Virus record (IMG/VR): IMGVR_UViG_3300030333_005770
Span: 5,087-69,086 of that record
Length of the DNA: 64,000 nt
Reading direction: 5' to 3' (one strand)
From: a virus
Within the stretch, counting starts at the first letter, position 1; every line of letters begins with the position of its first letter. The position numbers were made by a program, and so were the translations under genes. Below are positions 37,101 through 64,000 of the stretch, piece by piece. A model generated the notes under the pieces. It was not told where the DNA came from. It ran no database searches and saw only the letters and a list, made by a program, of their open reading frames with translations.

Positions 37101-40100
37101 AGAAGGGGAAATTAAAAATAGATAATCTCGAAGGCGTTTGATCTGTGTGCGTACGGAATCAACTCGCTTGTCCTTAGCGGCTCGGGCTTGCATCTCGAGC
37201 TGACCCTGAGAAGCACTCATACGATCAAGAACATATTTGCGTACGCCCTTGGGATCTTTCGGATGTGCCTTTTCGGCATCCAAAACGGTGTTGTACCAGA
37301 AATTGTAAATGTTGGACTCCGCAGAGGGCTCGAAGGTCTTCTTCTTCTTATCGTACCTCCCGGACGCGAGCCGTTGTATCATGGCAAAGAAAGCCTGGCC
37401 TTTTGAATCTTCCTCGTTCACAGCGCCCAAGTCATCCCAAGAATCCGTATTAAAAGTTGTTGCGGATTCCGTGTTAAATTCGTCCTTGGCCTTTTTACGG
37501 CGAAACTTATCAACAAGTTTGGTAAGTTTACGGGGGGTCATGTCGGGGAGTTCGATCAAGGCCTGAATAAAGCGGGGTATTGGTCCGGCTCCTTTAAAAA
37601 TATGGAACGCCGGGGCTTTAGCGATAGCCTGGCCGGCTTTTTCAGGTGTGATCTTCGAAGGTTGGTTGTCCACCTTTTTGCGCAGTTTCGAAAGTGCGGA
37701 ATCAATATCTTTACCACCGAGTTCTTCCTTAATAGCATTTTCCAAATACTCGCCAAACACATCCATCAGGAGGGTCCGTCTTTCATTTTCCTTCTTTAAT
37801 TCTGTCCCGGTAAGTGGGATGTCTCCCCGAGTTAAGAAAACCCCGAACTGATATTTAGGCCGGCCCTTCTTCATTTTACGCACCCGGAACCCTACATTGA
37901 ACTGCCTATTAAACTTTGCATCTTTACCCTTACCCGTAGTGAGTTTAAATTGTGCTTCGGGGTTTCCTGCGTAATCTTTTTGGTATTGGAAATTCTTAGC
38001 TACCCCAGCCCAATACTTAAACCTATTTAACAGGTTCTTGTAATCTTGTTGGTCCGCCTTGTTTTTGCTTTTTCTGAGGTATGCGATGCTGTCTGCAAAC
38101 GCCTTTTGGCCGTAAAATATTTTAACCCCTTTAGCCGGTTGGGACTTAATTTTTACCAACCTCGCCTTACCTTTACCTCTACCTTTACCTTTCTTCTTGG
38201 GGACCGCTTCTAAAGGCCGGCCCAAGCTACCTTGCGGGCGTTTCTTTACCTTCTCAAAATTTCTTTGGTTAACACCGATGGCTCCTTCCACAGAGTCCAT
38301 CTGGTTTGTCAACTCATTAATACGCTGCTGGATAGCTTCGGCAGTCATTGTCTGTAACTGCTCGTCTTGGAAATAAGCTTCCTCAATATCTTCAGGAGAC
38401 GGCGTCAGTTCCGAGTCCCTCTCGGCAAGATCTTTAGTCGCTACGAGGGGGCCCAATTTTGAACGGTCTACCAACTTTTCTATGTCTACAATAGAAGCCA
38501 AAACCTCAGAATCACTAATCTGAGAATCCAGTACGGCACGAACATATTTTTCTACAGTGGCTTCGAATCTACCAGGTATCTCATATTCCTCGGGGTTAGC
38601 TTCACGATGTTCTTCAATCTTGGCTATTACATCGGGAAATGCTTGAGCGATATTGGGATCCTCTTCAAAGATACTGTCAACCATCTCTTTTCTTTTGAGG
38701 TACATCGCTTTTTCCAATTCCTTAGGGTCTTGGATAAGCTTTTGCATGCGTTCCTGCGCAGCAAGAGTGTCTTTGTCCTGCTCATCAACAACGGCGCGTT
38801 CGGCAGTAACAAAGGCGCGCGCCTCTTCGACCGTCTTATGGTAGGTTTTTGCAGGGGTCGGCAAATTATACCCTTTTCCACCGGTACGGGTGACTGTGAC
38901 TGAACCGTTTTCGTTCTGGGAAGCGGTGTATTTTGGGCGGTCTACTAGTTGCTCTATATCACGTCTTCGATCTCTTTCAGCATCCTGAATGAGGCCGGCG
39001 TCATCCGCTTTAGTCTGGACGGTCTGTACAATCTTTTCCGCTCGGGCAATATCGGGGTCTTCGGTGGCTTTAACAGGCACAGTCCCTCCATACCCATCAT
39101 CCCTTGATCCTTCTTGACGAAGATACTCGGGGTCAGCCGCAATAGCTGCATCCACTTCAGCAGTGGCTTGGTCAAAGATACCACCCTCTTCCAAAACAGC
39201 GTCTGAACGACGCTTTGCCTCTTCTCGCTGCTGATCGACCGTTTGGAACATGGTGTCCTGAGGGTCGAGAATATTCGCACCCATCAAGGAGTTCACCGCC
39301 CAGATCGCACGCTCACGGTCAAGAACATCCATGGCTGCGATCTTATTCTTAAGATTATTCAGACCCTCCTGCTCGGTAAGCCCCTCATAACCCGTAGGTA
39401 GATCGGTACGATTGTCAGCACGATTGACGTCGGATCTATATTTGAAAAAGGTTTCAAGGTCACCCATGCGGGAACCGTTGTTCGTATACCCCATGGCGTT
39501 GAGAACAGCCTGACCAATTCGAATCTGTTGTTCCGGGGTACCTGCGTATTCTTCAGCGCCCATATAACCGGCAAAAGACGGTACGATATGCGACTCGAAA
39601 AACTGCTTGAGTGGTTTGGCAACTGATTGGTGAGCGCTGTCGCCAACCAATAAACGGGCAAATTGATAAGCAAACCATTCTTCGGCACGGACAAGCTCGG
39701 TAGACGCGTTCCATACGGCATCCACTTGACGTTTGCCCGCGGGATCAAGCTGGCTGTACTTGGCCTTGGGTGTCTTTACTACATATTCAGTAAGCGCATC
39801 AAGTTGAGCTTCTTTGGTAGGAAGCGCGGCATAGTAGGTGTTGATGAACGCTTCGTCGTTCTCGAACATTGATTGACGGGCAAAGTGAGCCGATTCGTGC
39901 ATGAACGCACGGAGCGGATTCTTAGCCATCATTTCTTTGTTCAAATAGATAAGCGTGGCTCCAGTCTCCGAATCATACTCAAATGAACCCTCCTGAAGAA
40001 TGTCGGGGGATGGTGTACGGTCGGATAGAACCCACCGGATATTCGAAAACTTCTCAGGGTTGAGCTGTTGTAAACGAGCCATGTAATCCTGAGTCCATTG

Positions 40101-51092: not shown

Positions 51093-51485
51093 TTAGGTTA
51101 TGTCGTATAGGCGTTCTGCTAGTGGGCTGAGCTTACGCATCGTATCAAGTTTCCAGGCGAAATGCTCCATTGTTGGGTATTGTCCTGTTGATTGGGACAA
51201 CTCCGGCCAATTGGGATGAGCTTTGGATGTGGGATACCAGTTAGTAGATGCGTGCGCATGGTATGTGTATTGGTGTTGTTGATTAACTCGGGACCAATTC
51301 AGTCTAAAGCATATGGAATTGTATTCCGGATATATGTATAGACCATTCTTCATATCGCATTTTCGAGTTGAGCTTGGAATAATCTCCATTTGAGCTTCGT
51401 CTTCGGGGGATATGTTGGCTCTGAGTTTCCGACTGCTCAACCAGATGATTGGCAGTGGTAGTGGTATTTGTGCTGGTGTTGTCAT
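51093..51485 (-). CDS. Hypothetical protein
   Basis: 130 aa from MTTPAQ; ATGA overlap with rIIA. Confidence 0.55.
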   Translation of the reverse strand: MTTPAQIPLPLPIIWLSSRKLRANISPEDEAQMEIIPSSTRKCDMKNGLYIYPEYNSICFRLNWSRVNQQHQYTYHAHASTNWYPTSKAHPNWPELSQSTGQYPTMEHFAWKLDTMRKLSPLAERLYDIT

Positions 51486-53716
51486 CGTTGTAGGTAGTTG
51501 AGGATATCGCGAGCGGCGTCTTTCTTGTCGACTTGCCATCCGACGTTTAGGTATTTGAGCATTGGGTGAGCCTTGGTTATAGCTTCCCACATAGTTTCCG
51601 GTTCATCTACTCGATCTCGTAGACCAAACCATTGGGCCACCCATCCGATAGTAGATGCTTCCCATGAGGTTAGCTTGTCTGGTAGATCGTCCTTAGTGTA
51701 GCGATGTCGGACAGTATTGAGGAAGTCAGACCAATCAAGCAATAGGAAGAACTCTTTAGATCGGGGGAAGGTGTTATGCCTTTTGATCTGATTAAAGCAC
51801 CGTTCTTCTGTGTGTTGCATGTTCCATGTTACATTTGCCCATGAGGCCAGCTTGAACATTTTCCGGTTGGCGTTCTTGATTATCGAGAACCATTCTTTAT
51901 ACCACTCATCGATGGTCATCCATTCATCAGTAAGCTTACTAAGGTAATGCTTCTTGACTCCATGGATTGTAGGCATTTCTGCATTGTATCGGTTGCAGAT
52001 CATTTCGATGGCCGTGATCAGTTGTTCGAACCGGTCTTCTTCTAGGTTATAGATTCCTCCATCCCAAGAGAATCGATCAAGAGGGATATATAGATATTTC
52101 TCTTCACCGGTCAGTGGGTTTTTCCATTTGTTGATGACGTCGTGTTTAATGATGCGTCCGTTAGCAGTTTTACTTGGCCTTAAATGACAAGTATCAATCT
52201 TAACATATTCAGTAGGCGTACCATCGGCGTTCTTCTTAGTGCGTTGGGCTTTGAGGGGTTCGATATGCTTGAGGTTGATGAGGTCATCTTTTAGGTGTGT
52301 CCAATCGAACTCGGTAGTATATCCGGTCGATAGGTTGACCCGGATGTTACCTTTCAGTACTGCGAGGGGGACAGCTGTTGCGACTTGTTCCCGGGTGTAG
52401 ATACCTGAGATGGTATTAATCTTCTTCATTGGAATCATGTAGTAGACAGATTCTTTATCCCACCCGGCCTCGTGTTGTAGTGTGCGTACCCGGCGTGTTG
52501 CTTGGGCTTGGCTAATCTTATCGGGATTATACCGGCAGTAGTAATGCTTAGGTCGTATCTTTAGATGAGTCTCTTCGGACTTACTGTTTACATAGTCTCC
52601 GGAACGATATCTATGCTTGCGTACGTGGGCTACGATAGCTAGTGGGGCCGAGAAGAACTTCAATAAGTCTTTACCATTCCATTTGGCATGCATGAATACT
52701 TTTTCGCGAATGGCGTCAGGCAATGAACTGATGATAGTTTCTGCGGTGTGACAGGCTTCTATGAAGGTTTTGGATCCGGCAATGTCATTGGTTAGCTGTT
52801 TTTGTAAGCTTTGCAGGACTTTGTTTGCTTCGATCTCAATAGCTTGGCAGGTGCGGGGGGTGTACTCTAAGGATTCCCGGGATGCTGCAATGTCAAGAGC
52901 CCCAACATTGAATTTAATAATGAGGTTCTTGCAGGCCAGGATGTTGCTATTACCTTTGAAATTACTGGAGATTTTATCAACGTCTATTTCATAAGGTATG
53001 TTACCCATGAGTGCTTTGGTCTTACCCATGTTGCGGTAGTATCCGGTTTCTTCGGTCCTAAGTAGGAACCAATTGTCACCAGTGCTGAGGATGTCTAGGG
53101 GCTTGATATCAATATTGCATTCGGGCATGACCTTGAAGTATGGGAATAATTCACGGGCATACTTTTCGAACTCTTGGACATCTTGGTTATGAACCGCGGC
53201 GGAGACTTCAACACCTTGTTCACCGGGTGCGGGTACTGTTGCGACATGGAACAATTCACCTTGTGATGATTCATCAATGACGGCTGTGTAATCGTTACGA
53301 TTTTGGCCATCGAAGGTGCTTATTGTGAATTGGTCTGTGTATGAGAAGAAGGCTTTACAACCAATACCTAGGCATCCGGTGTAGTCATTGGATGAACGTT
53401 TGGTGCTAGCGCCGTACATGATATAAATCTTGCGCACTTCTTCGTCGGTTAGGCCGGAACCATAATCTCTAATCTTGATGACCGGTGATGATAGTGTCGG
53501 CAGGGTTACTTTGATGGGGGTTGTTTCGATGCCTGCTTCAACATGAGCATCAATAGCGTTGGTGCAGTATTCGCGTAGGACAGCGAGCCATTTGTTGGAA
53601 TAGATCTTTGATCTTAGTATTCCTATGACATGGGACATGTCTTCTTTTTGGATACCAAAGCCGGAAGCATTGGCTAGGTTTGTTGAACGTGTGTGTTCGG
53701 GTGTGGATAATTTCAT
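51482..53716 (-). CDS. rIIA: RIIA-like protein (GHKL/HSP90-type ATPase N-terminus)
   Basis: IYSNK..AVLREY..NA.DAH, IRDYGSGL, YGASTK, G.LGIG.K and SRESLEY motifs. Confidence 0.88.
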   Translation of the reverse strand: MKLSTPEHTRSTNLANASGFGIQKEDMSHVIGILRSKIYSNKWLAVLREYCTNAIDAHVEAGIETTPIKVTLPTLSSPVIKIRDYGSGLTDEEVRKIYIMYGASTKRSSNDYTGCLGIGCKAFFSYTDQFTISTFDGQNRNDYTAVIDESSQGELFHVATVPAPGEQGVEVSAAVHNQDVQEFEKYARELFPYFKVMPECNIDIKPLDILSTGDNWFLLRTEETGYYRNMGKTKALMGNIPYEIDVDKISSNFKGNSNILACKNLIIKFNVGALDIAASRESLEYTPRTCQAIEIEANKVLQSLQKQLTNDIAGSKTFIEACHTAETIISSLPDAIREKVFMHAKWNGKDLLKFFSAPLAIVAHVRKHRYRSGDYVNSKSEETHLKIRPKHYYCRYNPDKISQAQATRRVRTLQHEAGWDKESVYYMIPMKKINTISGIYTREQVATAVPLAVLKGNIRVNLSTGYTTEFDWTHLKDDLINLKHIEPLKAQRTKKNADGTPTEYVKIDTCHLRPSKTANGRIIKHDVINKWKNPLTGEEKYLYIPLDRFSWDGGIYNLEEDRFEQLITAIEMICNRYNAEMPTIHGVKKHYLSKLTDEWMTIDEWYKEWFSIIKNANRKMFKLASWANVTWNMQHTEERCFNQIKRHNTFPRSKEFFLLLDWSDFLNTVRHRYTKDDLPDKLTSWEASTIGWVAQWFGLRDRVDEPETMWEAITKAHPMLKYLNVGWQVDKKDAARDILNYLQR

Positions 53717-53747
53717 AGTGTGTGAGTTTGGTGGTTAATAGTATGGT

Positions 53748-53785
53748 GAGCCTTTTATATGGACATGCTCAGGTCCAACCATGAT
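53748..53785 (-). ncRNA. H-type pseudoknot motif, copy 1
   Basis: AUCAUGGUU-GGAC-CUGAGCAU-GUCC-AUAUAAAA-GGCUC. Confidence 0.6.
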
Positions 53786-53787
53786 TA

Positions 53788-54741
53788 CTAACCTAAATAG
53801 GGTGTGATTATGTAATCGTTATGAGTGTCAGACCAGTCGATGTAGATTTCGTGGTAGATGTCTTGAAACTCCTGTGCCCGGTGCACTTCATCGGGGGATA
53901 TGTTTCGAAACTTCTTGGCCATTTTCCGGAAGAGGATAGGTTTACCCTTCTTGATCTTTTTATGGATATACTTGTTGATCTCATCAGAACGATTTTGATC
54001 TCCAGAGTATAGGCCGTCGTCAAGCTTTTCCCGGGCATGGCATTCACCGATAACTTTGTATCGGCAGACACGAAGCTTTTGGTATTCTGAACAGTGAGGT
54101 ACCGATACAGCATCTTTAGGGTTGAAGGATACTTGCATTAGGCGACCGTTGTGGCCCCAGCTGTCAGCATATTCATGGGATCCGATATGGAATCCGGCTG
54201 AGCAACCGTGGTCAACAGAATCATCTACATTGGCGCGATCCATTTGATTGATGCAACCGATGCTGTTATCAAACTTACCGGAATAGATGTCGGTATAGTC
54301 GTTGTTGACACCTTTGTATCCGATGACATCGCCGTCTTCATTGATGGGCATGTTGGAATGTTCAAGGAATTTATACAGTTGTTTCCGGCTGTTGTAGCTG
54401 GGGTTCTGCATAAGTTTTTCAATGAAGCGCATCCATGGTCGTGGATCGGCGAGGCCGTCGTCGAGTAGGTTGAGCAGTTTTTGAGCAGCGGCGTTGTTTA
54501 CCGGTTCATTCCTGTAGTATATGCTGTTATCTCGGATGGTAATTTGGCCTTCACTTATCTTAGCTAAGGACTTACCGGGATTCAGATGGTCTTTGATTTC
54601 GTCATAGTGCCCATCAAGCAGACAACGTTTTAGGTCCGGGTAGTTAACGGCTGTGGCCGGTATTGTGTATGATTCTCCTTCGTAGGAGAGCGTTATGCAA
54701 TTATCTGTAATCAGATATGGTGGTGGTGTGTTTGTATTCAT
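53788..54741 (-). CDS. rIIB: RIIB-like protein
   Basis: L.QNPS....QLY.FL, I..DG....YK.V, CS.G.H.G...YA, NPKD.VSVP and K.RVC.Y motifs. Confidence 0.88.
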   Translation of the reverse strand: MNTNTPPPYLITDNCITLSYEGESYTIPATAVNYPDLKRCLLDGHYDEIKDHLNPGKSLAKISEGQITIRDNSIYYRNEPVNNAAAQKLLNLLDDGLADPRPWMRFIEKLMQNPSYNSRKQLYKFLEHSNMPINEDGDVIGYKGVNNDYTDIYSGKFDNSIGCINQMDRANVDDSVDHGCSAGFHIGSHEYADSWGHNGRLMQVSFNPKDAVSVPHCSEYQKLRVCRYKVIGECHAREKLDDGLYSGDQNRSDEINKYIHKKIKKGKPILFRKMAKKFRNISPDEVHRAQEFQDIYHEIYIDWSDTHNDYIITPYLG

Positions 54742-55331
54742 GATTCTATTAGGTAGTTTGCCCAGTATAGTGAGTCGGGCTGTTGTTGGATTTGATCCCA
54801 GAAGATATTCCGGCTGATGACAGGTGGAATGTTCTTCTCGTTTGATTTGGTGATCCAGTAGTTTTCGTAGTACTGGTATTGTGGAATGGACACGGTTTGA
54901 TCTACTTGTGTCCATCCGAATGCTTTCAACATATGTCGATCAAGGCATATGCATTGAGCTGTGGTTGGGTGTAACATTTCAATGGCGAAGCTGGTCTTGG
55001 CTGGGCCAAGCTTTGGTAACTTCGACATGAGTTCGTTACGCCATTGTTGCCAATCGGCGTTGGGTACAAAGGCCAATGGGTTTGTATTCCATTGGTAATG
55101 TAGTCCATTAATGCCAGTGGCTTTGATGTTGAACATACCCCCGGAGCTCGATGATAGTAGTTTTTCGAGCTTGGATATGGGAGTTGTGGTATCTTCGTGT
55201 TTGATTTGATCGTATTGTTCGCAACTACGTTCCCAAGGGGTGTGAACAGTGCAGTAAGCAAAGCGCCATCGGTTTAACGCTTGTCGTGGGGTAGAGGGTC
55301 GGATTTTAGTCCAATCCTTAACGTATTTCAA
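54738..55331 (-). CDS. HhH-superfamily DNA glycosylase-like protein (start uncertain, TTG assumed)
   Basis: LPKLGPAKTSF helix-hairpin-helix followed by CLDRHML. Confidence 0.65.
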   Translation of the reverse strand: MKYVKDWTKIRPSTPRQALNRWRFAYCTVHTPWERSCEQYDQIKHEDTTTPISKLEKLLSSSSGGMFNIKATGINGLHYQWNTNPLAFVPNADWQQWRNELMSKLPKLGPAKTSFAIEMLHPTTAQCICLDRHMLKAFGWTQVDQTVSIPQYQYYENYWITKSNEKNIPPVISRNIFWDQIQQQPDSLYWANYLIES

Positions 55332-55338
55332 AACAACA

Positions 55339-56154
55339 TCATTTGTTAGACTGTTGAAGAATCTTGTTATACGCTTTTTGCACGCTCTGGGAATTGTCCG
55401 TAGTGTTGTACCCGGTCCAGTTGTGCTCTTTTTTGAGAGCTTGGAGGGCTTTGGATGCGGATGATCCTGCGGGTTGGCATCCGTGGATGAGGTGTCCGAA
55501 GGATCGTCCGGGTTTGTAGGCGTGGGAATCGTCATGATCTAGTTCTAGTCCTTTCTGTTTTGCTTCTTCGAGTGAGTATACTACTTCAGCTGATTTTAGT
55601 TTGTGGATATCGATGAGGTCATCGAACTTGCCACCACGTGAAGCATTGAGCTCGAAGTTGCTTGGTATTAAGTTCATGTGCATGACCCAAAGATCTATTC
55701 GTTTGGTGTAGGAATAGAATTGGGTAGGATCAAACAGGCGTGCTAAATCCATCCATGCGAGGAAGTAATCTTCTTTGAAGAAGTCACCTCCGACATGAGC
55801 TCTGACGATTGGTCGTTGTTGATGATTTTCAATATATGTATCGTGTAGGGGTTGGAGGGATTCTGATAGTAGTTTCAGGATCTTCTTGTGCCCTAGTCGA
55901 CGTAGGATATTGAAGTTATTCCACCTTAGGTTGCGTATGTGCTTGTGCCTTGCTTCTTGCATGGCGGCATAGCAACGGTAGATTTGGTTAGGTCCGTCCG
56001 TAATTTTGCCTGTTTGGGCATCGGCGCGGGCGAGACATTGCATCGCTGCTGGGCAGCTGTGTCCAGATGGAAGGCTGAAGTGCAATACTCGGGAAGGTAG
56101 CTTGATGTTACCTTGATTCCATTTTAGAGATGGCTGTATCTTTGACTTAGTCAT
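55339..56154 (-). CDS. GP88-like protein (divergent radical-SAM-like)
   Basis: GN.KL, FSLP.G.SCP, C...CYA, R.HV.GDFF and YSYTK motifs. Confidence 0.8.
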   Translation of the reverse strand: MTKSKIQPSLKWNQGNIKLPSRVLHFSLPSGHSCPAAMQCLARADAQTGKITDGPNQIYRCYAAMQEARHKHIRNLRWNNFNILRRLGHKKILKLLSESLQPLHDTYIENHQQRPIVRAHVGGDFFKEDYFLAWMDLARLFDPTQFYSYTKRIDLWVMHMNLIPSNFELNASRGGKFDDLIDIHKLKSAEVVYSLEEAKQKGLELDHDDSHAYKPGRSFGHLIHGCQPAGSSASKALQALKKEHNWTGYNTTDNSQSVQKAYNKILQQSNK

Positions 56155-56362
56155 ATAGGTTGTGACCTTTGCGAAACCATTTCGTGCATGAGAAGCATGC
56201 TATTTTGAAACGCAATGCGCGTTTATTGATATAGTTTTCTTTGCAACTCGGGCATAATACAAATGATTCGCATTCGGCTTTAATTTCCAGAGCCTCTCGA
56301 ACCTGCGCAGCAGAGTATTTCTCTCTGTTACGCAGGATCTTGTAGGCTCCGGCGGGGTTCAC
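56147..56362 (-). CDS. Small Zn-ribbon protein
   Basis: CPSC ... CFSC. Confidence 0.6.
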   Translation of the reverse strand: MNPAGAYKILRNREKYSAAQVREALEIKAECESFVLCPSCKENYINKRALRFKIACFSCTKWFRKGHNLYD

Positions 56363-56364
56363 AA

Positions 56365-57177
56365 TTATACCAACTCGAAATCAACGGCCTCTGCTACGGC
56401 CTCTTCGTATTCATTAGTGGAATCAATCCGGGCATCGATGGCATCCTTACAGTAATCGGTGAAGGTGTTATGCAATCGGATAGACCGGTCGGTAAGCATT
56501 GATGGAGACGTCTTCTGAACTTCAGTGAAGGCATTGAACAAAGACCAGCAGTTACGAGGTTCAAAGGCCTCATGCTGGGGATTGTCCCATTCCTCGATGA
56601 CAGCTTCAAGCTTAGAGCTGGGCAAAGCTTTGTTTCGCATGCTTTGCATTATGACATCGTGGGCCTGGACGTCGTTCAGGGTTGTGTCGGCGTAGGCTTC
56701 ATACCGGATTTCTTGGTAGTTCCATTTGTCAACGACTTGAAGAACCATGTGGCCAATCAGACTACTTAGATCCCGGAGGATGTGACGGGTGTGCTTACGA
56801 TTCATCTTAACTTCACCGGTGAAGGCCAGGTTATCGCATACGAATACGCGTGATCCGGCAACCAATCCGGCACTGAAGTGTTTGATGTGGCTGTTTCGGA
56901 TACCGACAACATTTTGGAAGGTACCGTTACCTTCGGAATCCTGACGTTCGATATTGTAGAGGGCAAAGAGATCATTGCCTTCATGATTCAATCCGTAATG
57001 CCGGTCAGTGATAGTAAGACTATGCTTGTTAAGAACATTATCGATGGTGTTCAGCAGGGTCTCATGCGGTATCGGGTAGTGAGTAGCGGTAGGCGCTGGC
57101 GTTTCGATGGAGCATACATCGGAGTAGTTAGCTCCGGTACCTCCACAGTGTAGATATAGTCTATTATTATCGCTCAT
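56365..57177 (-). CDS. DUF932/DUF945-like protein
   Basis: T.TH.PIPH, G.RNSH, G.RVFVCDNLAF, RKHT and WSLFNAFTE motifs. Confidence 0.8.
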   Translation of the reverse strand: MSDNNRLYLHCGGTGANYSDVCSIETPAPTATHYPIPHETLLNTIDNVLNKHSLTITDRHYGLNHEGNDLFALYNIERQDSEGNGTFQNVVGIRNSHIKHFSAGLVAGSRVFVCDNLAFTGEVKMNRKHTRHILRDLSSLIGHMVLQVVDKWNYQEIRYEAYADTTLNDVQAHDVIMQSMRNKALPSSKLEAVIEEWDNPQHEAFEPRNCWSLFNAFTEVQKTSPSMLTDRSIRLHNTFTDYCKDAIDARIDSTNEYEEAVAEAVDFELV

Positions 57178-57395
57178 GATATTATAGTTAGTTGTGGTGT
57201 ATGGTTTACGTTATAGGCCCAACCTTGGATAGTTATTAAAGGTTGAGACTTGTTGTGTTTTGATTCAGTAGGTACTGAAACAGTGATGTTTTGGGTTAAT
57301 AAACATTTGCCTCGCCAATGTACGGTTAGGCATTTGTTTGGTTTATTGTAATGGAAGAAGAATCTATATTTTCTCTTCCGTGGTTTGGAGGCCAT
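57174..57395 (-). CDS. Hypothetical protein
   Basis: 73 aa; FFFHYNKP...TVHWRG.C; coupled ORF. Confidence 0.65.
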   Translation of the reverse strand: MASKPRKRKYRFFFHYNKPNKCLTVHWRGKCLLTQNITVSVPTESKHNKSQPLITIQGWAYNVNHTPQLTIIS

Positions 57396-57744
57396 GATCG
57401 TTGGTGTTGGTTATGGCTGTGTCCACAGGATCGGAGATAGGATCCGGATCTATGTGATGAACTTTACCGTTACATTTGACGTATAGTATGGTGTCTAAGT
57501 TGAGAGCTCGCCAAGCGGTCACGTTTTCCCAGGTGTTCCATCCACGCAGGTTATGCATGAGGTACACAGGAAGTAGTGAGTTATCCGGTTGAGAGACTCT
57601 ACGGCCGGTTCCTTTGATGGATTTCTTGACGTATCGTCGGACGTTAGCGGTTCTGATTGACCCGTCTTTCTTAATCCAGCAGACATGGAATATGTTACTG
57701 CCGAATGAACGGATGAGATCTAGTATTTTAGTACGGTTATGCAT
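57364..57744 (-). CDS. WYL_2/Sm-like SH3 beta-barrel protein
   Basis: F.V.W.KKDGS.R and WR.LNLD motifs. Confidence 0.65.
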   Translation of the reverse strand: MHNRTKILDLIRSFGSNIFHVCWIKKDGSIRTANVRRYVKKSIKGTGRRVSQPDNSLLPVYLMHNLRGWNTWENVTAWRALNLDTILYVKCNGKVHHIDPDPISDPVDTAITNTNDHGLQTTEEKI

Positions 57745-58339
57745 GGTAGTTGTGGTATCTGGGTGCTTGTTCTGGTTTGTTGTTGGCATAAGCTTGCCAT
57801 ATAGCTGTGTCTAATTCACTAGGTGACATGTCTAATTGACATGACCGGCCAAGGAATAGAGCTTCAAGATCTTGATAGTAGTTTTCGTCTTGAGGTGTGG
57901 TGTCGGGTATCTCGGCATTAGGCCACTCGAGCTTTAACCATTTTAGTACATGGGTGTCGAGTACGGCTACTTCGGCATATTCACGACTGTGAGCAATGAA
58001 GAAGCTAGCTGTCTTGGGGCCGATTCCGGGTATGTTAGTCAGTTCATTACGATTGATGGTATATAGTTGACCACCGTTCTTGAACGTATTGCGAATAGAC
58101 TTCCAACATTTGGATAGACGATCGTATTGGCCAAGCCCAACGGTTTTCATGATTTTGCGTAGTGCATTTCCATGGAGGTCGAGGGTTGTTAGATCTCGGT
58201 TTTTGAACAGACGATTAAACTTCGCAGTCTGTACATCTGATCGTTTGCCGGCTACGGTAGTAGTCCATAGCAGGAACAGTAGTAGATCACTCGGACTTCG
58301 ATTGAAGTTGGTGATTTGATTTTGGTTTATTGCTTTCAT
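57737..58339 (-). CDS. HhH-GPD DNA glycosylase/AP lyase (Ogg-like)
   Basis: IPGIGPKTASFF (HhH with catalytic Lys), AVLDTHVL, Y..LE..F. Confidence 0.8.
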   Translation of the reverse strand: MKAINQNQITNFNRSPSDLLLFLLWTTTVAGKRSDVQTAKFNRLFKNRDLTTLDLHGNALRKIMKTVGLGQYDRLSKCWKSIRNTFKNGGQLYTINRNELTNIPGIGPKTASFFIAHSREYAEVAVLDTHVLKWLKLEWPNAEIPDTTPQDENYYQDLEALFLGRSCQLDMSPSELDTAIWQAYANNKPEQAPRYHNYHA

Positions 58340-58439
58340 GGTTCGTAGGATTTTGGCAGTAACCAATTGCCATGGTTATTAATAAGCAGACCAGGATTGT
58401 GCCCCAATCTGCTTTGTGGTTATAAAAAGATTTCATGTT

Positions 58440-58508
58440 AAAAAAAAAGAGCCCGACCCACGCATACCATAGGACGACAGAAACCTATGATAGTACGTGA
58501 ATCGGGCT
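58440..58508 (-). terminator. Unusually long hairpin terminator after the DUF2828 gene
   Basis: About 24-bp G-U-rich stem with a single-nucleotide bulge, followed by T9. Confidence 0.75.
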
Positions 58509-58546
58509 GAAAAGACGCTTGACAGCGTCCGGGTGCAGGTGCGTGG

Positions 58547-60070
58547 TTACGGGGCTTTGACGCCCCAAGAGTTAAAGCTGAGGTTCAGCTTATCGATAGC
58601 GTTCACAATAGGAGCATAACGCTCGTTATCGAGAACAGCGGCCTTCATGAAGGACTCTGGATTGTAGTCATTACTAAAAGCCATGGACAGGATGGTGGGT
58701 GAGCGACCGCTAATCAGGATGACACCGTCGTCATTCTTGGTAGCAGGTACTTGATTACCGCGAGAACATACATTCCAGAACACAATGGTTGGAAGGGTAA
58801 GACCGGCCATCTCTGCATGCGTACGCATAGCATCGAGGTTGGTGGGACTATTCCCGTAGTAGTTATCGGTGGCGGCATTGAACTCCATATCGGATACAAT
58901 AACTAGATTGTCCGGAAGTTCGCATTCGGCCTCAACAGCGCTGTCGATCAGAGTCTTCACAGCACCTTCGATGTTGGTAGACATCCCCCAATCGGCAGAG
59001 CTTAGCGCCTCGAGCTTCTGATCAATCGAGTTAAGAGGGTTGATTACCTCTAGAGCCGGCTCATCGGTGAAGGTCATGAACTTGTTCTGCCAATGTCCGG
59101 AGACATTTCGTTCAGCCATGTACATAGCTAATGCGATGGAAACAAAGATAGAATCAAATTCATCATACATGCTTCCGGATACATCGGCCATTACGATGGT
59201 GTCTTGGGGTTCACCAAAGGTAGGAAGGTTATCCCATAATGCGTTCAGGGCTGGATCTCCGGCAGACTGGTCCTTGTCTTGCATGATCTGCTTGATGATC
59301 TGATCCGGAGTAAGGGTACCGGCATTGATCTTAGCTTCACCCTTTTCAACACTATTTATGTAAGTGTTGAAACGTTCTTGATCATGCTTACCGAAAGCAG
59401 AGCGTAACCGGAGCATAGCTTGGCTAGGCACGGCAGCGTAATCAATCTCTTCCCATCGGCCGGAACACATCTTGGATTCAACAACGTTGAGATGCTCACG
59501 TAACTTACGGAGATTCTTACGGTATTGTTTCTGTGTCCAACCGAGGTCATGGCAGATAGCTTTCGCTAATGCTTTCTGGGTACGGTTGCTAGCGGTTAGG
59601 CTAGGTAACCATTTACCAAGAAGGGTACATTCTTGGCCAAGCTCGGAGGCGGCAAGATCAAGACTGAGATGGTGCTTAACCTTTTGCCGAACGGTGGCGT
59701 TAAGCTCGTAGTGCCGGATTACATCGTCCCAACGGCCATAGTTTGGAGTAAATCCAATAACAGCGTTGTAGATATCTTGGCAGTCACGATTTTTGGCCGT
59801 GAGCAAGAAGTCCATGCATACCCGGAAGATGTTCCGTTCACCCATACCATTACGGATATCGCGGGTGTAGAACAGAAGGGCAACTGCAAGTACAGGGTTT
59901 TCAACAAGGGCATTCTTGAAGAGTTTGAGGGCGGATACGACATCGTGTCGGAGAGCTCCGATACGAGAGAACATGTCCAGACAAGCGTCTAAGGTGGACT
60001 TGTTGCTCGATGCACCATTTTGGGTTTGAGTGCTGTTGGTGCTCGCACGTACTGAATCAACTAGGTTCAT
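58547..60070 (-). CDS. DUF2828 / TROVE-vWA (Ro60-related) protein
   Basis: RDIR.G.GER, YGRWDD, KWLP, MIDAS DVSGSM, WGMSTN, SDMEF and FWN motifs. Confidence 0.85.
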   Translation of the reverse strand: MNLVDSVRASTNSTQTQNGASSNKSTLDACLDMFSRIGALRHDVVSALKLFKNALVENPVLAVALLFYTRDIRNGMGERNIFRVCMDFLLTAKNRDCQDIYNAVIGFTPNYGRWDDVIRHYELNATVRQKVKHHLSLDLAASELGQECTLLGKWLPSLTASNRTQKALAKAICHDLGWTQKQYRKNLRKLREHLNVVESKMCSGRWEEIDYAAVPSQAMLRLRSAFGKHDQERFNTYINSVEKGEAKINAGTLTPDQIIKQIMQDKDQSAGDPALNALWDNLPTFGEPQDTIVMADVSGSMYDEFDSIFVSIALAMYMAERNVSGHWQNKFMTFTDEPALEVINPLNSIDQKLEALSSADWGMSTNIEGAVKTLIDSAVEAECELPDNLVIVSDMEFNAATDNYYGNSPTNLDAMRTHAEMAGLTLPTIVFWNVCSRGNQVPATKNDDGVILISGRSPTILSMAFSNDYNPESFMKAAVLDNERYAPIVNAIDKLNLSFNSWGVKAP

Positions 60071-60145
60071 GATAGTATATTTAGTTATGTAGGTTAGTGT
60101 GGGTTTAAAGGGGAGAGTGGGGATTGGACCCACTCTCGAAGCGGT

Positions 60146-60436
60146 TTAACTTATGCTATAGTGGCAACGGTCTAAGCTTGCGCGTAGAGTAATGGGGGAG
60201 GTACAACCGAGATCGTAAGCGTCTGCTTGCCAAGATTGTGGTTCCAGGGTTCCATGTTTTTCGAGGAAACGATCTTTTGCATATTGTTGGACAGCATCGC
60301 GGTGAGCGAACTCGAACGAATAATGCTTCTTGTTCATATCGACTAGGATCTCAAGCACGTTTTGGCATATTTGAGCTTGGGTGAGGCTTTTGATTTCGGT
60401 TGCACCTTCCATTAGGTTGAGTATTGCATTTTGCAT
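60146..60436 (-). CDS. Hypothetical protein
   Basis: 96 aa from MQNAIL. Confidence 0.55.
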   Translation of the reverse strand: MQNAILNLMEGATEIKSLTQAQICQNVLEILVDMNKKHYSFEFAHRDAVQQYAKDRFLEKHGTLEPQSWQADAYDLGCTSPITLRASLDRCHYSIS

Positions 60437-60574
60437 AGTATGTATGTTGCTTATTTGTTGTGGTTTTGTGCATATTTCTACGCACTCGGAAAGGGATGAG
60501 AGGTCGAGCCGCCACACTCGATAAAGCTTTCAAGGATAAACCTACTAGGCGTAGTACTGCCCTCTCAAGAATAG

Positions 60575-61420
60575 TTACTTGGCCTGAGGGTACCCAGATG
60601 TTGGGCCAAAGTAACGGGTAACTGACCGTGAAACCGGACGGTCAAAGCGGACATGGTTCCAGGTCTTGATAAGGCCGGCTAGGGCTTCGTACCTAGTCCA
60701 AGGTTGCTTATCGAAACGGACCTTAAACATCTGTTCACGGAAGTGCCGGATGGGACTGTCTTCGGAAAGGTCAATACCTTTAGCGAATCTAACGAGGAAG
60801 TCGTCAGCTTCTTCTTCATCGATATCGGCAAAGATGCGGTGGGCCGTGGCGCAGATGGAACCGGCGATGGGCAATTGCTTCTTCAGGGGGGCGATGAAGT
60901 TAACTGACTTAGGCATTTCCGGGTACATATCCATGAGGGTTTTGGCGTACTCATTGGGATACTTCATGCCTTTGCCACCGACTTTGATGGTCTGGTTCGT
61001 ATACTGGTCGAAGAGAACAACTGCGGAGGCCAACAGGGCAGAGTTTTCATAGCCGAGAATACCGAGGACATCGGACATACTACGACGTTTTCCGGAATCG
61101 ATCGTATCGAATACCTTGGGATCAAGGTTCTTAACGATGTAGGTCCGGAGTGGAAGGTTGGCTTTAACGCAAGCGGACAACCGGTGCTGGCCGTCGATGA
61201 GGATTTCACTGCCGTCGGAATTGCGTCCGACGCAGATGGTTTGGCCGTTTTCTTGCCACTCGCCGTCAAGCATGGCTTGGGCTAGTTTGTCGACGTGTTT
61301 TTGGGCCAGTACTCTGTTTCTCCGGGGGAGGTCGAGGAGGCGTTGAGCTTCGCGGGGGGAGATGGTTACGAGGTTAGCGGTTTTGTGGGTGGTAACGGTT
61401 GGTGTATATGTGTTCTGCAT
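60575..61420 (-). CDS. ParB/Srx-like N-terminal domain protein
   Basis: ISP..A..LL, NR.L, M..GEW..NG..I, LIDGQHRL.A and ID.G..R motifs. Confidence 0.8.
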   Translation of the reverse strand: MQNTYTPTVTTHKTANLVTISPREAQRLLDLPRRNRVLAQKHVDKLAQAMLDGEWQENGQTICVGRNSDGSEILIDGQHRLSACVKANLPLRTYIVKNLDPKVFDTIDSGKRRSMSDVLGILGYENSALLASAVVLFDQYTNQTIKVGGKGMKYPNEYAKTLMDMYPEMPKSVNFIAPLKKQLPIAGSICATAHRIFADIDEEEADDFLVRFAKGIDLSEDSPIRHFREQMFKVRFDKQPWTRYEALAGLIKTWNHVRFDRPVSRSVTRYFGPTSGYPQAK

Positions 61421-61425
61421 GATAG

Positions 61426-61683
61426 TTAGACGTTGGATTGAGTGAAGACAATGGTCTTCTGTTTGGTGAATGGTGTGGGTTCTGTGTCAATGACAATGAG
61501 CATCTCTCCGCCCACGAGTGCTTTGAACGCGGTGGTTAGAAAATCATCATTGTCGGTTAAGTGCTCTAGACCTATGTCTTTGAGCCGGTCGATGAATTGT
61601 TTCGATGAATCAAGGGATTCAACGATTCCTTCTTCGGTCAGCAGTTTTCGGATCTGCTCCGGATCCCCAAGTGGACTAGACAT
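61426..61683 (-). CDS. Hypothetical protein
   Basis: 85 aa from MSSPLG. Confidence 0.55.
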   Translation of the reverse strand: MSSPLGDPEQIRKLLTEEGIVESLDSSKQFIDRLKDIGLEHLTDNDDFLTTAFKALVGGEMLIVIDTEPTPFTKQKTIVFTQSNV

Positions 61684-61852
61684 TGGATTTTTTGTGGTTA
61701 GCTTCGTGAAGTCGAAAGACTGGAGATCTGGATAGGTCGGCAATGAAGCCGGGTATGTTCCGATTCTCGAGCTTGCCATATCGACGTTCGTGCTTCTCAA
61801 GGGCAATAGGTACAACGGCCTTGAGCGTTTTTCTAGAGATTTTTATGATCAT
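61676..61852 (-). CDS. Hypothetical protein
   Basis: 58 aa from MIIKIS; ATGA overlap. Confidence 0.5.
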   Translation of the reverse strand: MIIKISRKTLKAVVPIALEKHERRYGKLENRNIPGFIADLSRSPVFRLHEANHKKSNV

Positions 61853-62025
61853 GCTAGTTTGGGTTCGGGTATTACGATTGATTTGAAGTAAGCTATGGTA
61901 ACCTTGTGGCAGGTTCCGTCCGGGTAGGTCATCCAGCAATGGTTGCTGTTTGCGGGCCCGTACTGGAGATGGATATGGTTGAGCGAGCCATCCCACTCGC
62001 GTATTAGATGTGTCATTGGTTTCAT
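61849..62025 (-). CDS. Hypothetical protein (MKPMTHLIREWDG...)
   Basis: 58-aa ORF not in the track; stop overlaps the next start. Confidence 0.5.
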   Translation of the reverse strand: MKPMTHLIREWDGSLNHIHLQYGPANSNHCWMTYPDGTCHKVTIAYFKSIVIPEPKLA

Positions 62026-62056
62026 TGGTTTCGTGGTTGTGTGTTAGTTCACGGTT

Positions 62057-62290
62057 AAAAAAAAAGAGCAGTTTAAGGTCATACTCAGGACCAACCATGA
62101 TCGTTGCCGATCTTTGGGCGAAGGATGTCGCCCGATAGCGTATGCTATGATGTTGGATTAAGGATCGCTGGGTCATCGTGTTTCGACGATGTTTGTTCAC
62201 TAAAGAGCAGTTATTGAGACGGACATACTCCGGTCCGGTGTTTTCTAGATGAGTAATAGCTGGATCATCGTATTTCTACGATGTGGAATT
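62057..62290 (-). ncRNA. Putative structured ncRNA containing pseudoknot copies 2 (62066-62101) and 3 (62205-62236)
   Basis: Two pseudoknot motifs and five hairpins, ending in U9. Confidence 0.55.
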
Positions 62291-62516
62291 TTTGCATAGC
62301 TAGGTCATGACTAGATAGCGGGTTGGTTTTGTTATCAGTGTGGATTGCTGTAGTAACGTTTCTTATCAACGTTGAGACTAATGCGGTAAACAGGGCTTAC
62401 CACGTACCCATAGATCTTGTGTCTTATTGGATGGATTGCAGAAGTGGACGCGTTTCGGCGTTCTTCGGACTTGGACATAGGTACAGATCTACAAACTCCC
62501 TATACTCCCAAATCCT

Positions 62517-62583
62517 ACACCTTATAACATTTATTAATTTAAATTAGGAGCCCTAAAGCGCCTGTATGATAGTTCTCTGGACA
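62517..62583. repeat. Bipartite direct repeat, right copy (dif-like 28-mer plus 24-bp box)
   Basis: ACACCTTATAA-CATTTA-TTAATTTAAAT (62517-62544) and GCCTGTATGATAGTTCTCTGGACA (62560-62583). Confidence 0.8.
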
Positions 62584-62618
62584 AATTTATATATTCCTGT
62601 AGGGTGCCGGCGGCGTTC

Positions 62619-62910
62619 CTTTTACGTTTTATACGTTTTAGATCCGTTTTTTTACTTAAAACGTAATTTATAAACTGCTGGCCTTGAAAACCTTATACCT
62701 TATTTTACGTTTTTACGTTTTAATATATAGAAAGTATAGTATATATAATATAAGGGGTTCTCTGATGGTGTGTGTCCTGTGAGATATTACCGAGGGGTTT
62801 TTCTACCGTAAAAACGTAAAAACGTAAAATGATTCCCGAATTCCTTGCCTATAAAGACTTTGTGATTTTACGTTTTTAAGCCCCAACCGTTTCCCGAACG
62901 TTAAAACGTT
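62619..62910. repeat. Iteron-like TTTTACGTTTT repeats with AT-rich core (candidate replication origin)
   Basis: Many copies in both orientations; perfect 20-bp inverted repeat at 62702-62721 / 62811-62830. Confidence 0.65.
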
Positions 62911-63178
62911 ACTTCCGCTTAAAGGAACGATTCTTGGATTTCGGTACCGCCCGCAGGTTATTCCGGCTATTGTTACCGGTGTTTCGGTCTTTGTGGTCTA
63001 CATCCTTGCCGTCGCCCTTCCGTACCCGACCCGCCTTTGTCATGATTCTTCGAGCGGCGTTCCTCTGAGCCCGCCTCTTTTTTTGGTCTGGCCGGCCGTG
63101 ATACCTCCGGTACTCCCTTTTGTAGTCTCGAGGCTTCCGAATGGATGATCTGCGTCTGTTTCGTCTACGTAGTGGCAT
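62909..63178 (-). CDS. Small HNH endonuclease
   Basis: RDYKREY, DVDHKD, N...NLR and NRS motifs. Confidence 0.85.
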   Translation of the reverse strand: MPLRRRNRRRSSIRKPRDYKREYRRYHGRPDQKKRRAQRNAARRIMTKAGRVRKGDGKDVDHKDRNTGNNSRNNLRAVPKSKNRSFKRK

Positions 63179-63211
63179 ATGTATATCTTAGCCAAATGTT
63201 GAGTTTTTGTA

Positions 63212-63220
63212 AGCGGTTGC
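63212..63220 (-). promoter_or_regulatory. Degenerate late-promoter box, copy 6 (GCAACCGCT)
   Basis: Box, 21 bp, TAAGAT, 6 bp, ATG of the HNH gene. Confidence 0.5.
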
Positions 63221-63276
63221 GGTTGACCTGCTTTAAAACGTTACTGGCGTCAAGCAATACGTCACAAAAAGATCTC

Positions 63277-63306
63277 TTGCATCGCTTATGTAATACATGG
63301 TATAAC
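63277..63306 (+). promoter_or_regulatory. Sigma70-like promoter of the replication operon
   Basis: TTGCAT, 18 bp, TATAAC with extended TG; 6 nt before ATG 63313. Confidence 0.55.
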
Positions 63307-63312
63307 CTATCT

Positions 63313-63468
63313 ATGCCGTTAGATAATCAAGTAAACATACGGGTTGACGACGACCTGCTATATAAAATAAAGCTACTAGCGAAACAGCGCTACTCAACAC
63401 CCTCTCAAATTGTCCGGCAGGCGGTGGCTGAATACCTCGAGAAGATGGCGGCTAAGAGTAAGTCATGA
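63313..63468 (+). CDS. Ribbon-helix-helix (CopG-like) regulator
   Basis: QVNIRVDDDL...LA.....S.IVRQAV.EYL. Confidence 0.85.
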   Translation: MPLDNQVNIRVDDDLLYKIKLLAKQRYSTPSQIVRQAVAEYLEKMAAKSKS

Positions 63469-63593
63469 GTACCCTGAAAGTCCTAGTATTCCTAATAGTA
63501 AGTGCTTTCGCCGGGTGCAATCACCCATGTACGGTGGCTTCCCATAGCTGTCCCGAACCGGGTCACGGGCCTTGCTACCTTTGCGATAAGTGA
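63465..63593 (+). CDS. 42-aa Cys/His-rich lipoprotein
   Basis: MSTLKVLVFLIVSAFAG-C lipobox; overlaps the stop/start codons of both neighbours. Confidence 0.55.
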   Translation: MSTLKVLVFLIVSAFAGCNHPCTVASHSCPEPGHGPCYLCDK

Positions 63594-64000
63594 AAATCTT
63601 GACCGTTGACCCCGGCGTCGGTGGTGGGATGGCTCTTTATGATAGTGCCGATGGTACCCTGGAGCTTGAAAAATTCACCACTGAGCATGAGTTCATCACC
63701 TTCGCCCGTCGGCTGTTGACCAAGGACCATCAAGCAACAGCTTACGTAGAAGATGTCCCCTCTTATGTAAGTCGTGCGACATCCAACGCGAGTAGTTTCA
63801 AATTGGGGTATAACTTCGGTTTCGAGGTGGGTGTTCTTCGTGGGATGGACGTACCAGTCAACCTCGTTGGTCCTAAGTCGTGGCAGAAAGGTCTCCGGGG
63901 GTTGAAGCCTAAGATGGGGTATACTGAGCGTAAACGGCAGTTAAAGGACAACGCGGTCCGGCTGTATCCCGATTACAAAATAACGAACGCCACGGCTGAC
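63590..64000 (+). CDS. RuvC-like Holliday junction resolvase (3'-truncated by window edge)
   Basis: GTG start; ILTVDPG..GG, YVE.V, F..G.NFG, P..WQK and ...AD motifs; not in the ORF track. Confidence 0.85.
   Translation, partial: MKILTVDPGVGGGMALYDSADGTLELEKFTTEHEFITFARRLLTKDHQATAYVEDVPSYVSRATSNASSFKLGYNFGFEVGVLRGMDVPVNLVGPKSWQKGLRGLKPKMGYTERKRQLKDNAVRLYPDYKITNATAD

Follow-up and report, generated by a model that had tools for sequence, protein, structure and literature searches.

A compact pseudoknotted RNA motif recurs ahead of genes and tRNAs in phages of unrelated hosts

The window analysed here is a stretch of 64,000 nucleotides (nt) from a marine phage (bases 5087-69086 of the 69,086-bp IMG/VR virus record IMGVR_UViG_3300030333_005770, which is rated 100% complete). 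Its early region is on the minus strand and runs from a divergent control region near 62.5-63.1 kb. Three copies of a small RNA motif, an H-type pseudoknot of about 33 nt in its consensus form, are found in this region (Table 1). Copies 3 and 2 are 144 nt apart in the leader ahead of the first early open reading frame (ORF), the ATG of which (62025) is 40 nt downstream of copy 2. Copy 1 lies 8.3 kb away, between an rIIB-like and an rIIA-like gene; it starts 11 nt past the rIIB stop codon and ends 31 nt ahead of the rIIA ATG. The same motif precedes genes and transfer RNAs (tRNAs) in phages of many other hosts.

The original prediction had placed three copies on the minus strand, outside genes, with a compensatory swap in stem P1 (GGAC/GUCC against GGUC/GACC). 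The re-read sequences are identical to those reported, the swap reads exactly as claimed, and there are no further copies in the genome. Pattern GGWCCKGAGYATGWCC has three minus-strand and no plus-strand matches in the whole 69,086-bp genome; the reversed control of the pattern has none. A scan of the window that tolerates up to two mismatches also returns three matches, each with no mismatch, against 0.47 +/- 0.74 in shuffled windows (three were reached in 2 of 100 shuffles). A covariance model built from the relatives described below scores copy 2 at 47.2 bits, copy 1 at 35.8 bits and copy 3 at 26.0 bits (E 2.7e-4); the next best match in the rest of the window has 12.8 bits (E 0.35). All copies are outside convincing genes, although a 174-aa (amino acid) GTG frame without a family match (61676-62200) formally overlaps copy 2. 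The AUCAUGGUU shared by copies 1 and 2 on their 5' side is real, but it is not a feature of the family. An enclosing helix formed from it is rejected, as flanking-helix potential is not enriched (5.06 in 206 instances versus 4.91 +/- 0.08 for mismatched flanks).

Table 1. Features at the locus (window coordinates; copies are written 5' to 3' on the minus strand).
Feature	Position	Strand	Details
Copy 3	62205..62236	(-)	62236-62205: GGAC-CGGAGUAU-GUCC-GUCUCAAUAACU-GCUC; P1 GGAC/GUCC, loop CGGAGUAU, linker 12 nt, P2 3' strand GCUC
Copy 2	62066..62092	(-)	62092-62066: GGUC-CUGAGUAU-GACC-UUAAACU-GCUC; P1 GGUC/GACC, loop CUGAGUAU, linker UUAAACU, P2 3' strand GCUC, then nine U
Copy 1	53748..53776	(-)	53776-53748: GGAC-CUGAGCAU-GUCC-AUAUAAAAG-GCUC; in the 71-nt rIIB-rIIA spacer
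Abundant early-leader RNA	62127..62476	not shown by contigs	depth 243, run X4
First small early ORF, 58 aa, after copy 2	61849..62025	(-)	mechanical ORF call; no Shine-Dalgarno
rIIB-like gene, upstream of copy 1	53788..54915	(-)	phrog_609, E 2e-63
rIIA-like gene, downstream of copy 1	51482..53716	(-)	phrog_612, E 9e-92; HATPase_c_3 domain

The family consensus is NNNC-C-UGAGYA-U-GN'N'N'-NNAAAC-UGCUCA. Stem P1 has 4 bp, L1 is a single nucleotide (C), L2 has 1-2 nt, and L3 is A-rich and has 6-7 nt. The second helix, P2, joins the 8-nt hairpin loop to the 3' tail and has 5-6 bp: four core pairs, plus a U:A pair in 85 of 120 aligned rows and an A:U pair in 94 of 120. The 3' strand of P2 is not a Shine-Dalgarno sequence. 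Linker length ranges from 1 to 11 nt across the family. In the gathered material the junction and linker are constant and the helices vary, a constancy which is partly imposed by the scan patterns.

Both helices can be judged from scans which leave them free. In the free-stem scan (CCTGAGYATGN{4,14}AAAMKGCTC) the outer three P1 positions are unconstrained. Among the matches listed, 119 of 141 distinct viral instances pair at every one of these positions, 21 at two of them and 1 at a single one; about 40 different P1 stem sequences are in use, and 112 of the 141 have a linker of 2 nt before AAAMKGCTC. Of the 126 matches listed for bacterial and archaeal contigs, 52 have both a 2-nt linker and a fully paired stem, and the others are scattered over linker lengths, as expected by chance. 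The free-P2 scan (GGWCCTNNNNATGWCCTTAAACTNNNNA) leaves the four core P2 positions unconstrained on each side and finds 67 stretches, 53 of them distinct. The W positions are complementary in 53/53. The loop and tail tetramers are fully paired in 48/53, with a single mismatch in the other five. In 17 of the 48 the helix is not the consensus one and has changed on both sides: GAGU:ACUC (7), GAAU:AUUC (2), AAGC:GCUU (2), and one each of GGGC:GCCC, AAAC:GUUU, GAGA:UCUC, GGAC:GUCC, GGUC:GACC and GGGC:GCCU.

A 120-sequence alignment (A2) gives the same picture. The two-helix structure is 94.8% paired, versus 77.0% in shuffles and 27-42% in slid controls; there are double-sided changes at 8 of 10 pairs, and the covariation score of 0.49 (versus 0.138) is reached by 0/500 shuffles. 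The rows of A2 were picked by patterns in which the C-G closing pair, L1 and L2 are set, as is much of L3, and 98 of the 120 were additionally selected for a paired stem; the unbiased figures are therefore those of the free-stem and free-P2 scans. The original prediction had proposed a search for relatives with covarying helices as a check on the pseudoknot. Such relatives are present in viral contigs, both helices covary strongly in them, and the H-type pseudoknot is real. A protein-binding site or promoter in double-stranded DNA is excluded, because the two arms differ freely from copy to copy, even inside a single genome, and the loop-tail helix shows covariation. Individual copies show further variants. 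The Staphylococcus version, as in phage vB_Sau_IS1 (L334:2498-2531), has the loop UUAGCA and the tail UGCUUC, so that one P2 pair is U-U and the helix has 4 bp. In phage D6E, L2 has an A in place of U.

In all, 208 distinct full-stem instances were gathered from viral and bacterial contigs. A first scan of viral contigs with the pattern TTGGWCCKGAGYATGWCC found 24 stretches. Fifteen end in the same 'A-rich linker + (G/U)GCUC' tail, each with its two W positions complementary. Eight GC-rich matches have no tail; their W positions are non-complementary in six of eight, and they look like chance matches. The remaining one, in contig L018, is without the usual tail, and its hairpin part (11866-11883) abuts the 3' end of a tRNA-Ser gene. 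The word GGGGAGUCGCAGA recurs close to the motifs in contigs L015 and L018. The free-stem scan matches at least 120 stretches in viral contigs and at least 119 in species genomes. With the covariance model, the motif is found in 30/30 tested records, at 1-8 copies each; in these records the copies are mostly clustered on one strand, within 4-16 kb.

Isolated phages in which the model verifies the motif include Staphylococcus phages StB12 and vB_Sau_IS1, Lactobacillus phages phi jlb1 and phig1e, the thermophilic phage D6E, Mycobacterium phage Labelle, Rhizobium phage RHph_Y65, Roseobacter phage SIO1, Lentibacter phage ICBM1 and the crAss-like phage cr7_1. BLAST searches with three natural 43-nt instances match 41, 78 and 144 phage records, of which the uninspected ones count as leads only; these unverified leads include 85 Staphylococcus records as well as cyanophages and phages of Vibrio, Bacillus, Streptococcus and Arthrobacter. 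Canonical copies are also found about 33 nt before an ORF in two contigs (L211:373-401 and L263:1889-1917) binned to metagenome-assembled genomes of the archaeon Methanobrevibacter; these may come from an archaeal virus or from a binning error. As for the phage itself, its rIIA protein has no relative in the viral contigs or in five motif-bearing records, and megablast of 10.5 kb of its genome against the phage collection gives no match.

The motif has a consistent position with respect to genes. The nearest long ORF has the orientation of the motif in 163 of 191 downstream cases and in 170 of 198 upstream ones, and same-strand ORFs contain the motif in only four of the 208 instances. For 151 of the 208, an ORF of 50 aa or more begins within 120 nt downstream, and in 91 of these 151 it starts 18-36 nt after the GCUC. 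Eleven tRNAs start 4-14 nt 3' of the motif. The distance upstream is broad (median 43 nt; 10 nt or less from a stop codon in 56/197), and the motif is therefore tied to the unit that follows it. GCUC is often followed by an A, and there is a G-poor stretch; otherwise no flanking nucleotide is conserved.

The units that follow are diverse. Clustering sorts 119 downstream proteins into 78 groups, and 110 of the proteins match 64 PHROG families; the largest family is a nuclease with nine members, and others are primase/helicase, methylase, thymidylate synthase, anti-restriction, endolysin, scaffold and rIIA. The motif is independent of the identity of the downstream gene, and with so many clusters and families it is not a gene-specific riboswitch. 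In siphophages of Firmicutes there is a single copy, always between the portal/minor-head genes and the scaffold and major-capsid genes. The motif occupies this boundary between low-copy and high-copy head genes, immediately ahead of scaffold and major capsid, in StB12, vB_Sau_IS1, phi jlb1, phig1e and D6E, with a spacing from motif to scaffold gene of about 23 to 143 nt.

Several familiar signals were considered at these positions. A sigma-70 promoter at a fixed upstream distance is rejected, as -10-like hexamers show no positional enrichment upstream of the motif. Terminators are not enriched (within 90 nt downstream in 7/208 instances and upstream in 10/208), and a terminator/antiterminator platform is rejected on these counts. 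Copies 2 and 3 read UGCUCUUU(A), which resembles the consensus of an rrn-type boxA; this reading is rejected, as the positions after GCUC are not conserved across the family. A hammerhead suspected by eye beside the motif at Paenibacillus and Syntrophomonadaceae loci has no cmscan match.

Copy 3 is transcribed. The RNA data are contigs from two metatranscriptome runs of one marine sample, and they give no strand, ends or local depth. Besides the contig of run X4 (Table 1), a second contig from run X6 covers 62130-62383 at a depth of 81; five other pieces of the same phage have depths of 2-8 in these runs. The RNA with copy 3 is thus 30-70 times deeper than the coding pieces of the phage. It includes copy 3 and not copy 2, and its low-coordinate contig end falls within the hairpin GGGCGAcauccuUCGCCC (62133-62116). 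Stretches of the phage with no contig cover, copies 1 and 2 among them, are uninformative as to transcription. Folded as the minus strand, 62127-62476 is more stable than shuffles (z -3.25). The motif is conserved, covarying, co-oriented with flanking genes and, at copy 3, highly transcribed; the earlier proposal of an element that functions at the RNA level stands.

The abundant RNA has other features. A 29-nt repeat of 86% identity (62164-62192 and 62256-62284) flanks copy 3 within it; each repeat copy consists of a hairpin, CAUCGU-NGAAAN-ACGAUG, followed by AYCCAGC. A 47-aa ORF (62478-62335) starts 2 nt beyond the contig end and may be leaderless. The divergent control region (62600-62900) contains an iteron-like array with at least five copies of TTTTACGTTTT(A/T), which may be an origin or operator cluster, and a perfect 20-nt inverted repeat (62702-62721 / 62811-62830). 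Start codons after the motif (53716 and 62025, and those of the marine relatives L005, L009 and L017) have no Shine-Dalgarno; their leaders are A/C-rich (...CACACACUAUG). A 9-nt tandem duplication at 62013-62032 doubles the first early ATG. Elsewhere in the window, a minus-strand ORF of 5832 aa (25119-42617) has matches only in its C-terminal part, to LPD38, phrog_14770 and phrog_616 (function unknown), and no RNA-polymerase family match. An early-region protein encoded at 58547-60133 (minus strand) has DUF2828 and DUF7788/VWA domains and matches 'RNA-binding protein' in PHROGs (E 1.7e-122); we take this to be a Ro60/TROVE-like architecture.

The original prediction could assign the motif to no Rfam family, and cmscan against Rfam 15 agrees. 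No family reaches the gathering threshold at the motif in the window or at 14 + 18 related loci, and there is no match at E<=1 at 10 isolated-phage loci. At E<=10, two sites give only sroD (13.5 bits) and Histone3 (10.1 bits), both noise, and the preQ1-I, ToxI-type and ribozyme models have no match. The motif is not described in the literature found by exact sequence or topic, a search which had supplements and subscription journals outside its scope. It is not matched in the accessible parts of 10.64898/2026.09.22.753630, PMC8040213 and PMC6316719, nor in that of PMC5737381, where the name 'GP20' is also absent from the main text (supplements being outside the scope). Folds of this type are well known; no account of the family, of its breadth or of its genomic habit was found within Rfam 15 and the literature covered. 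According to the available portion of PMC5737381, a multi-phylum RNA with a pseudoknot and conserved nucleotides is by heuristic a 'sophisticated RNA'. The motif is such an RNA.

From its fold, strand polarity, positions, breadth, independence of gene identity and the transcription of copy 3, we tentatively infer that the motif is a cis-acting barrier or processing module which defends the 5' boundary of the RNA downstream. An exonuclease block was one of the functions suggested in the original prediction, and we rank it first; a ligand- or protein-binding site, also suggested there, is less likely. Phage messages would carry the knot in the untranslated spacer that immediately precedes a gene or tRNA. 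Once folded, it would be a directional obstacle to decay that depends on the 5' end, whether by RNase J-type 5'-3' exonucleases or by RNase E scanning; alternatively, it would be a processing site. The downstream RNA, either a ribosome-binding site with its gene or a pre-tRNA, would outlive the RNA upstream. In this phage, copies 3 and 2 would protect the first early messages and copy 1 would protect rIIA; in siphophages of Firmicutes, the scaffold and capsid message would be raised over the portal and minor-head message. A barrier of this kind would explain why the motif stands ahead of scaffold and capsid genes in siphophages with a single operon, why it stands ahead of tRNAs, and why gene identity makes no difference to it.

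A small knot in a phage leader is known from T4/T2 gene 32. It is an H-type knot whose L1 has 1 nt, and it stands at the 5' edge of a leader that is unstructured and G-poor and that confers mRNA stability. The motif described here is likewise an H-type knot with a 1-nt L1 at the 5' edge of a G-poor leader before a phage gene. The gene 32 knot differs in that it is a single-copy autoregulatory operator for one protein, whereas the motif precedes dozens of unrelated genes as well as tRNAs, and does so in unrelated phages.

Exoribonuclease-resistant RNAs (xrRNAs) offer a closer analogy for a barrier. A flaviviral xrRNA stops bacterial RNase J1 through a general mechanical block (PMC5760640). The dianthovirus type is a very small viral RNA module, at 43-44 nt compared with about 33 nt for the phage motif. 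As described in the accessible part of 10.1101/262683 (bioRxiv), it is a stem-loop whose 3' tail is single-stranded, in which the loop sequence GAG pairs with CUC of the tail; this pairing is required for resistance to 5'-3' exonuclease. The phage motif has the same layout and the same core pairing of GAG with CUC. The plant element acts in the 5'-to-3' direction and independently of protein, properties which are only proposed for the phage motif. It also differs from the phage motif in that its two helices are coaxial, it has an internal loop, its apical loop is bipartite and it forms a ring around its 5' end; the phage motif has one 4-bp stem, a longer P2 and no Rfam xrRNA match. Finally, the hosts of these phages use RNase J or RNase E and not Xrn1.

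Several observations weigh against a barrier. The knot is small (4 + 5-6 bp), and known xrRNAs ring their 5' end, a topology that is not evident here. Taken singly, the copies have nested-fold energies that do not improve on those of shuffles (z -0.87, 0.00 and -0.43), and support for the fold therefore comes from covariation and not from thermodynamics. By the heuristic of PMC5737381, a loop and linker so highly conserved in sequence across phyla would be usual for ribozymes or riboswitches. The abundant contigs span copy 3 and reach at least 147-240 nt upstream of it, so the abundant RNA is not simply a decay product starting at the knot. A bacterial contig (L257:248-3997) carries seven copies on one strand within 4 kb, with few convincing ORFs; some of these copies run directly into strong terminators, there is a second repeated module, and the copies may be stand-alone small RNA genes. 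Both the abundant RNA through copy 3 and this ORF-poor array fit a barrier poorly.

The smallest riboswitch aptamers are of similar size. The preQ1-I aptamer (RF00522) is an H-type knot of about 34 nt with an A-rich L3 following P1, and the motif resembles it in topology and size. The motif could thus be an aptamer, either in a riboswitch-like sensor or in a trans-acting decoy or sponge, for a universally conserved small molecule or host protein; we regard this as rather unlikely. The constant junction and linker between variable helices would suit an aptamer, with the reservation that the scan patterns partly impose this constancy. Copies that look like stand-alone units of motif and terminator (L257, L105), the presence of copy 3 inside a very abundant non-coding early RNA, and a Saccharimonadia pair (L159/L236), in which a downstream segment is able to pair with the 3' strand of P1 and the loop, are also consistent with it. 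However, the downstream genes are mutually unrelated and 11 are tRNAs, so there is no metabolite logic. Terminators are no more frequent downstream than upstream, the 3' strand of P2 is not a Shine-Dalgarno, and the junction, with its 1-2 unpaired nt, would have little room for a pocket. Comparison with preQ1-I itself is unfavourable: its model has no match at E<=10, the L2 of the motif (1-2 nt) lacks the ligand-pairing C, and the downstream genes are unrelated to queuosine.

It is unlikely that the motif serves to cut polycistronic phage transcripts at gene boundaries, whether as a small self-cleaving ribozyme of a new class or as a dedicated signal for processing by an RNase. To our knowledge, 33 nt is smaller than any natural self-cleaving class. 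Rfam ribozyme models give no match even at E<=10, no conserved nucleotide in the flanks marks a cleavage site, and the deep RNA contigs span copy 3, although contigs cannot exclude cleavage. The distribution of the motif nevertheless mirrors that of phage-borne ribozymes (hammerhead, twister, pistol and the hepatitis delta virus-like theta): these are intergenic, on the coding strand, not gene-specific, present in multiple copies (1-8 per genome for the motif) and patchy across phyla. Like them, it is found next to tRNAs and replication-module genes (nuclease, primase/helicase, methylase, HNH), a habit described for theta ribozymes in the portion of PMC10879173 available, where phages set ribozymes within about 5 nt of tRNAs. 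The theta ribozymes sit 3' of tRNAs, whereas the motif sits 5' of them; it is also far smaller, and its catalysis would be putative. Its standing as a multi-phylum, pseudoknotted RNA with conserved nucleotides (PMC5737381, as far as available) counts towards a ribozyme as well.

A translational enhancer or standby site, which would contact the 30S subunit and boost initiation at the downstream start codon, is quite improbable. The tight spacing to start codons, the G-poor stretch after the motif and the placement before the most abundantly needed head proteins would all be expected of such a site. It would not account for the 11 copies 4-14 nt before tRNAs or for the variable spacing to scaffold genes, and the hosts span lineages with and without Shine-Dalgarno use.

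Type III antitoxins are specific to their cognate toxins. The original prediction had likened the motif to ToxI and pseudo-ToxI, compact pseudoknotted RNAs of about 35 nt, some of them carried by phages; a mimic of this type would neutralise a ToxN/AbiQ-family RNase. The size, the phage setting and the copy in an abundant early RNA agree with this analogy, but anatomy already largely refutes it: TRF over 53000-64000 gives only 8-12-nt periods and no tandem 30-45-nt units, the copies are dispersed, none of the 10 neighbouring ORFs scanned matches a ToxN-like or defence family in Pfam or PADLOC (rIIA alone has a weak match, to TmtA), there is no sequence or Rfam ToxI-type match, and recurrence of one motif in phages of unrelated hosts, of at least three phyla, is a misfit with antitoxins matched to a cognate toxin. 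We consider it very improbable. A DNA-level hairpin of the N4 kind, acting as a promoter or origin signal for a virion or phage RNA polymerase that reads it on single-stranded DNA, is equally remote: the copies do cluster where the early region starts, close to the end of the genome, the phage does encode a 5832-aa virion-type protein, and tRNAs do begin a few nt downstream of the motif, but a hairpin promoter needs no pairing such as the covarying P2, a 4-bp stem with an 8-nt loop would be unlikely to extrude from duplex DNA, the linker varies from 1 to 11 nt, temperate siphophages which use the host RNA polymerase also carry the motif, and the giant protein has no RNA-polymerase family match.

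Phages whose hosts are Gram-positive, Gram-negative, actinobacterial or from the gut share this 33-nt knot, with its two covarying helices and constant junction nucleotides. It is found at gene starts irrespective of which gene follows. It is possible, if doubtful, that this uncatalogued 'sophisticated' phage RNA is either the first protein-independent xrRNA of a prokaryotic virus or the smallest natural self-cleaving ribozyme, punctuating tailed-phage transcripts across phyla. If the motif blocks or steers RNA decay, it would extend the xrRNA principle from eukaryotic viruses to phages, and it would answer a question of long standing, namely how phages with only one long late operon make much more message for scaffold and capsid than for portal. 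If instead it acts as a catalyst or binds a ligand, it would be a new minimal ribozyme or aptamer. Either way, it would provide a compact and portable part with which to stabilise or insulate bacterial transcripts. Such breadth, together with indifference to the gene that follows, is the signature of an RNA with a demanding and general task.

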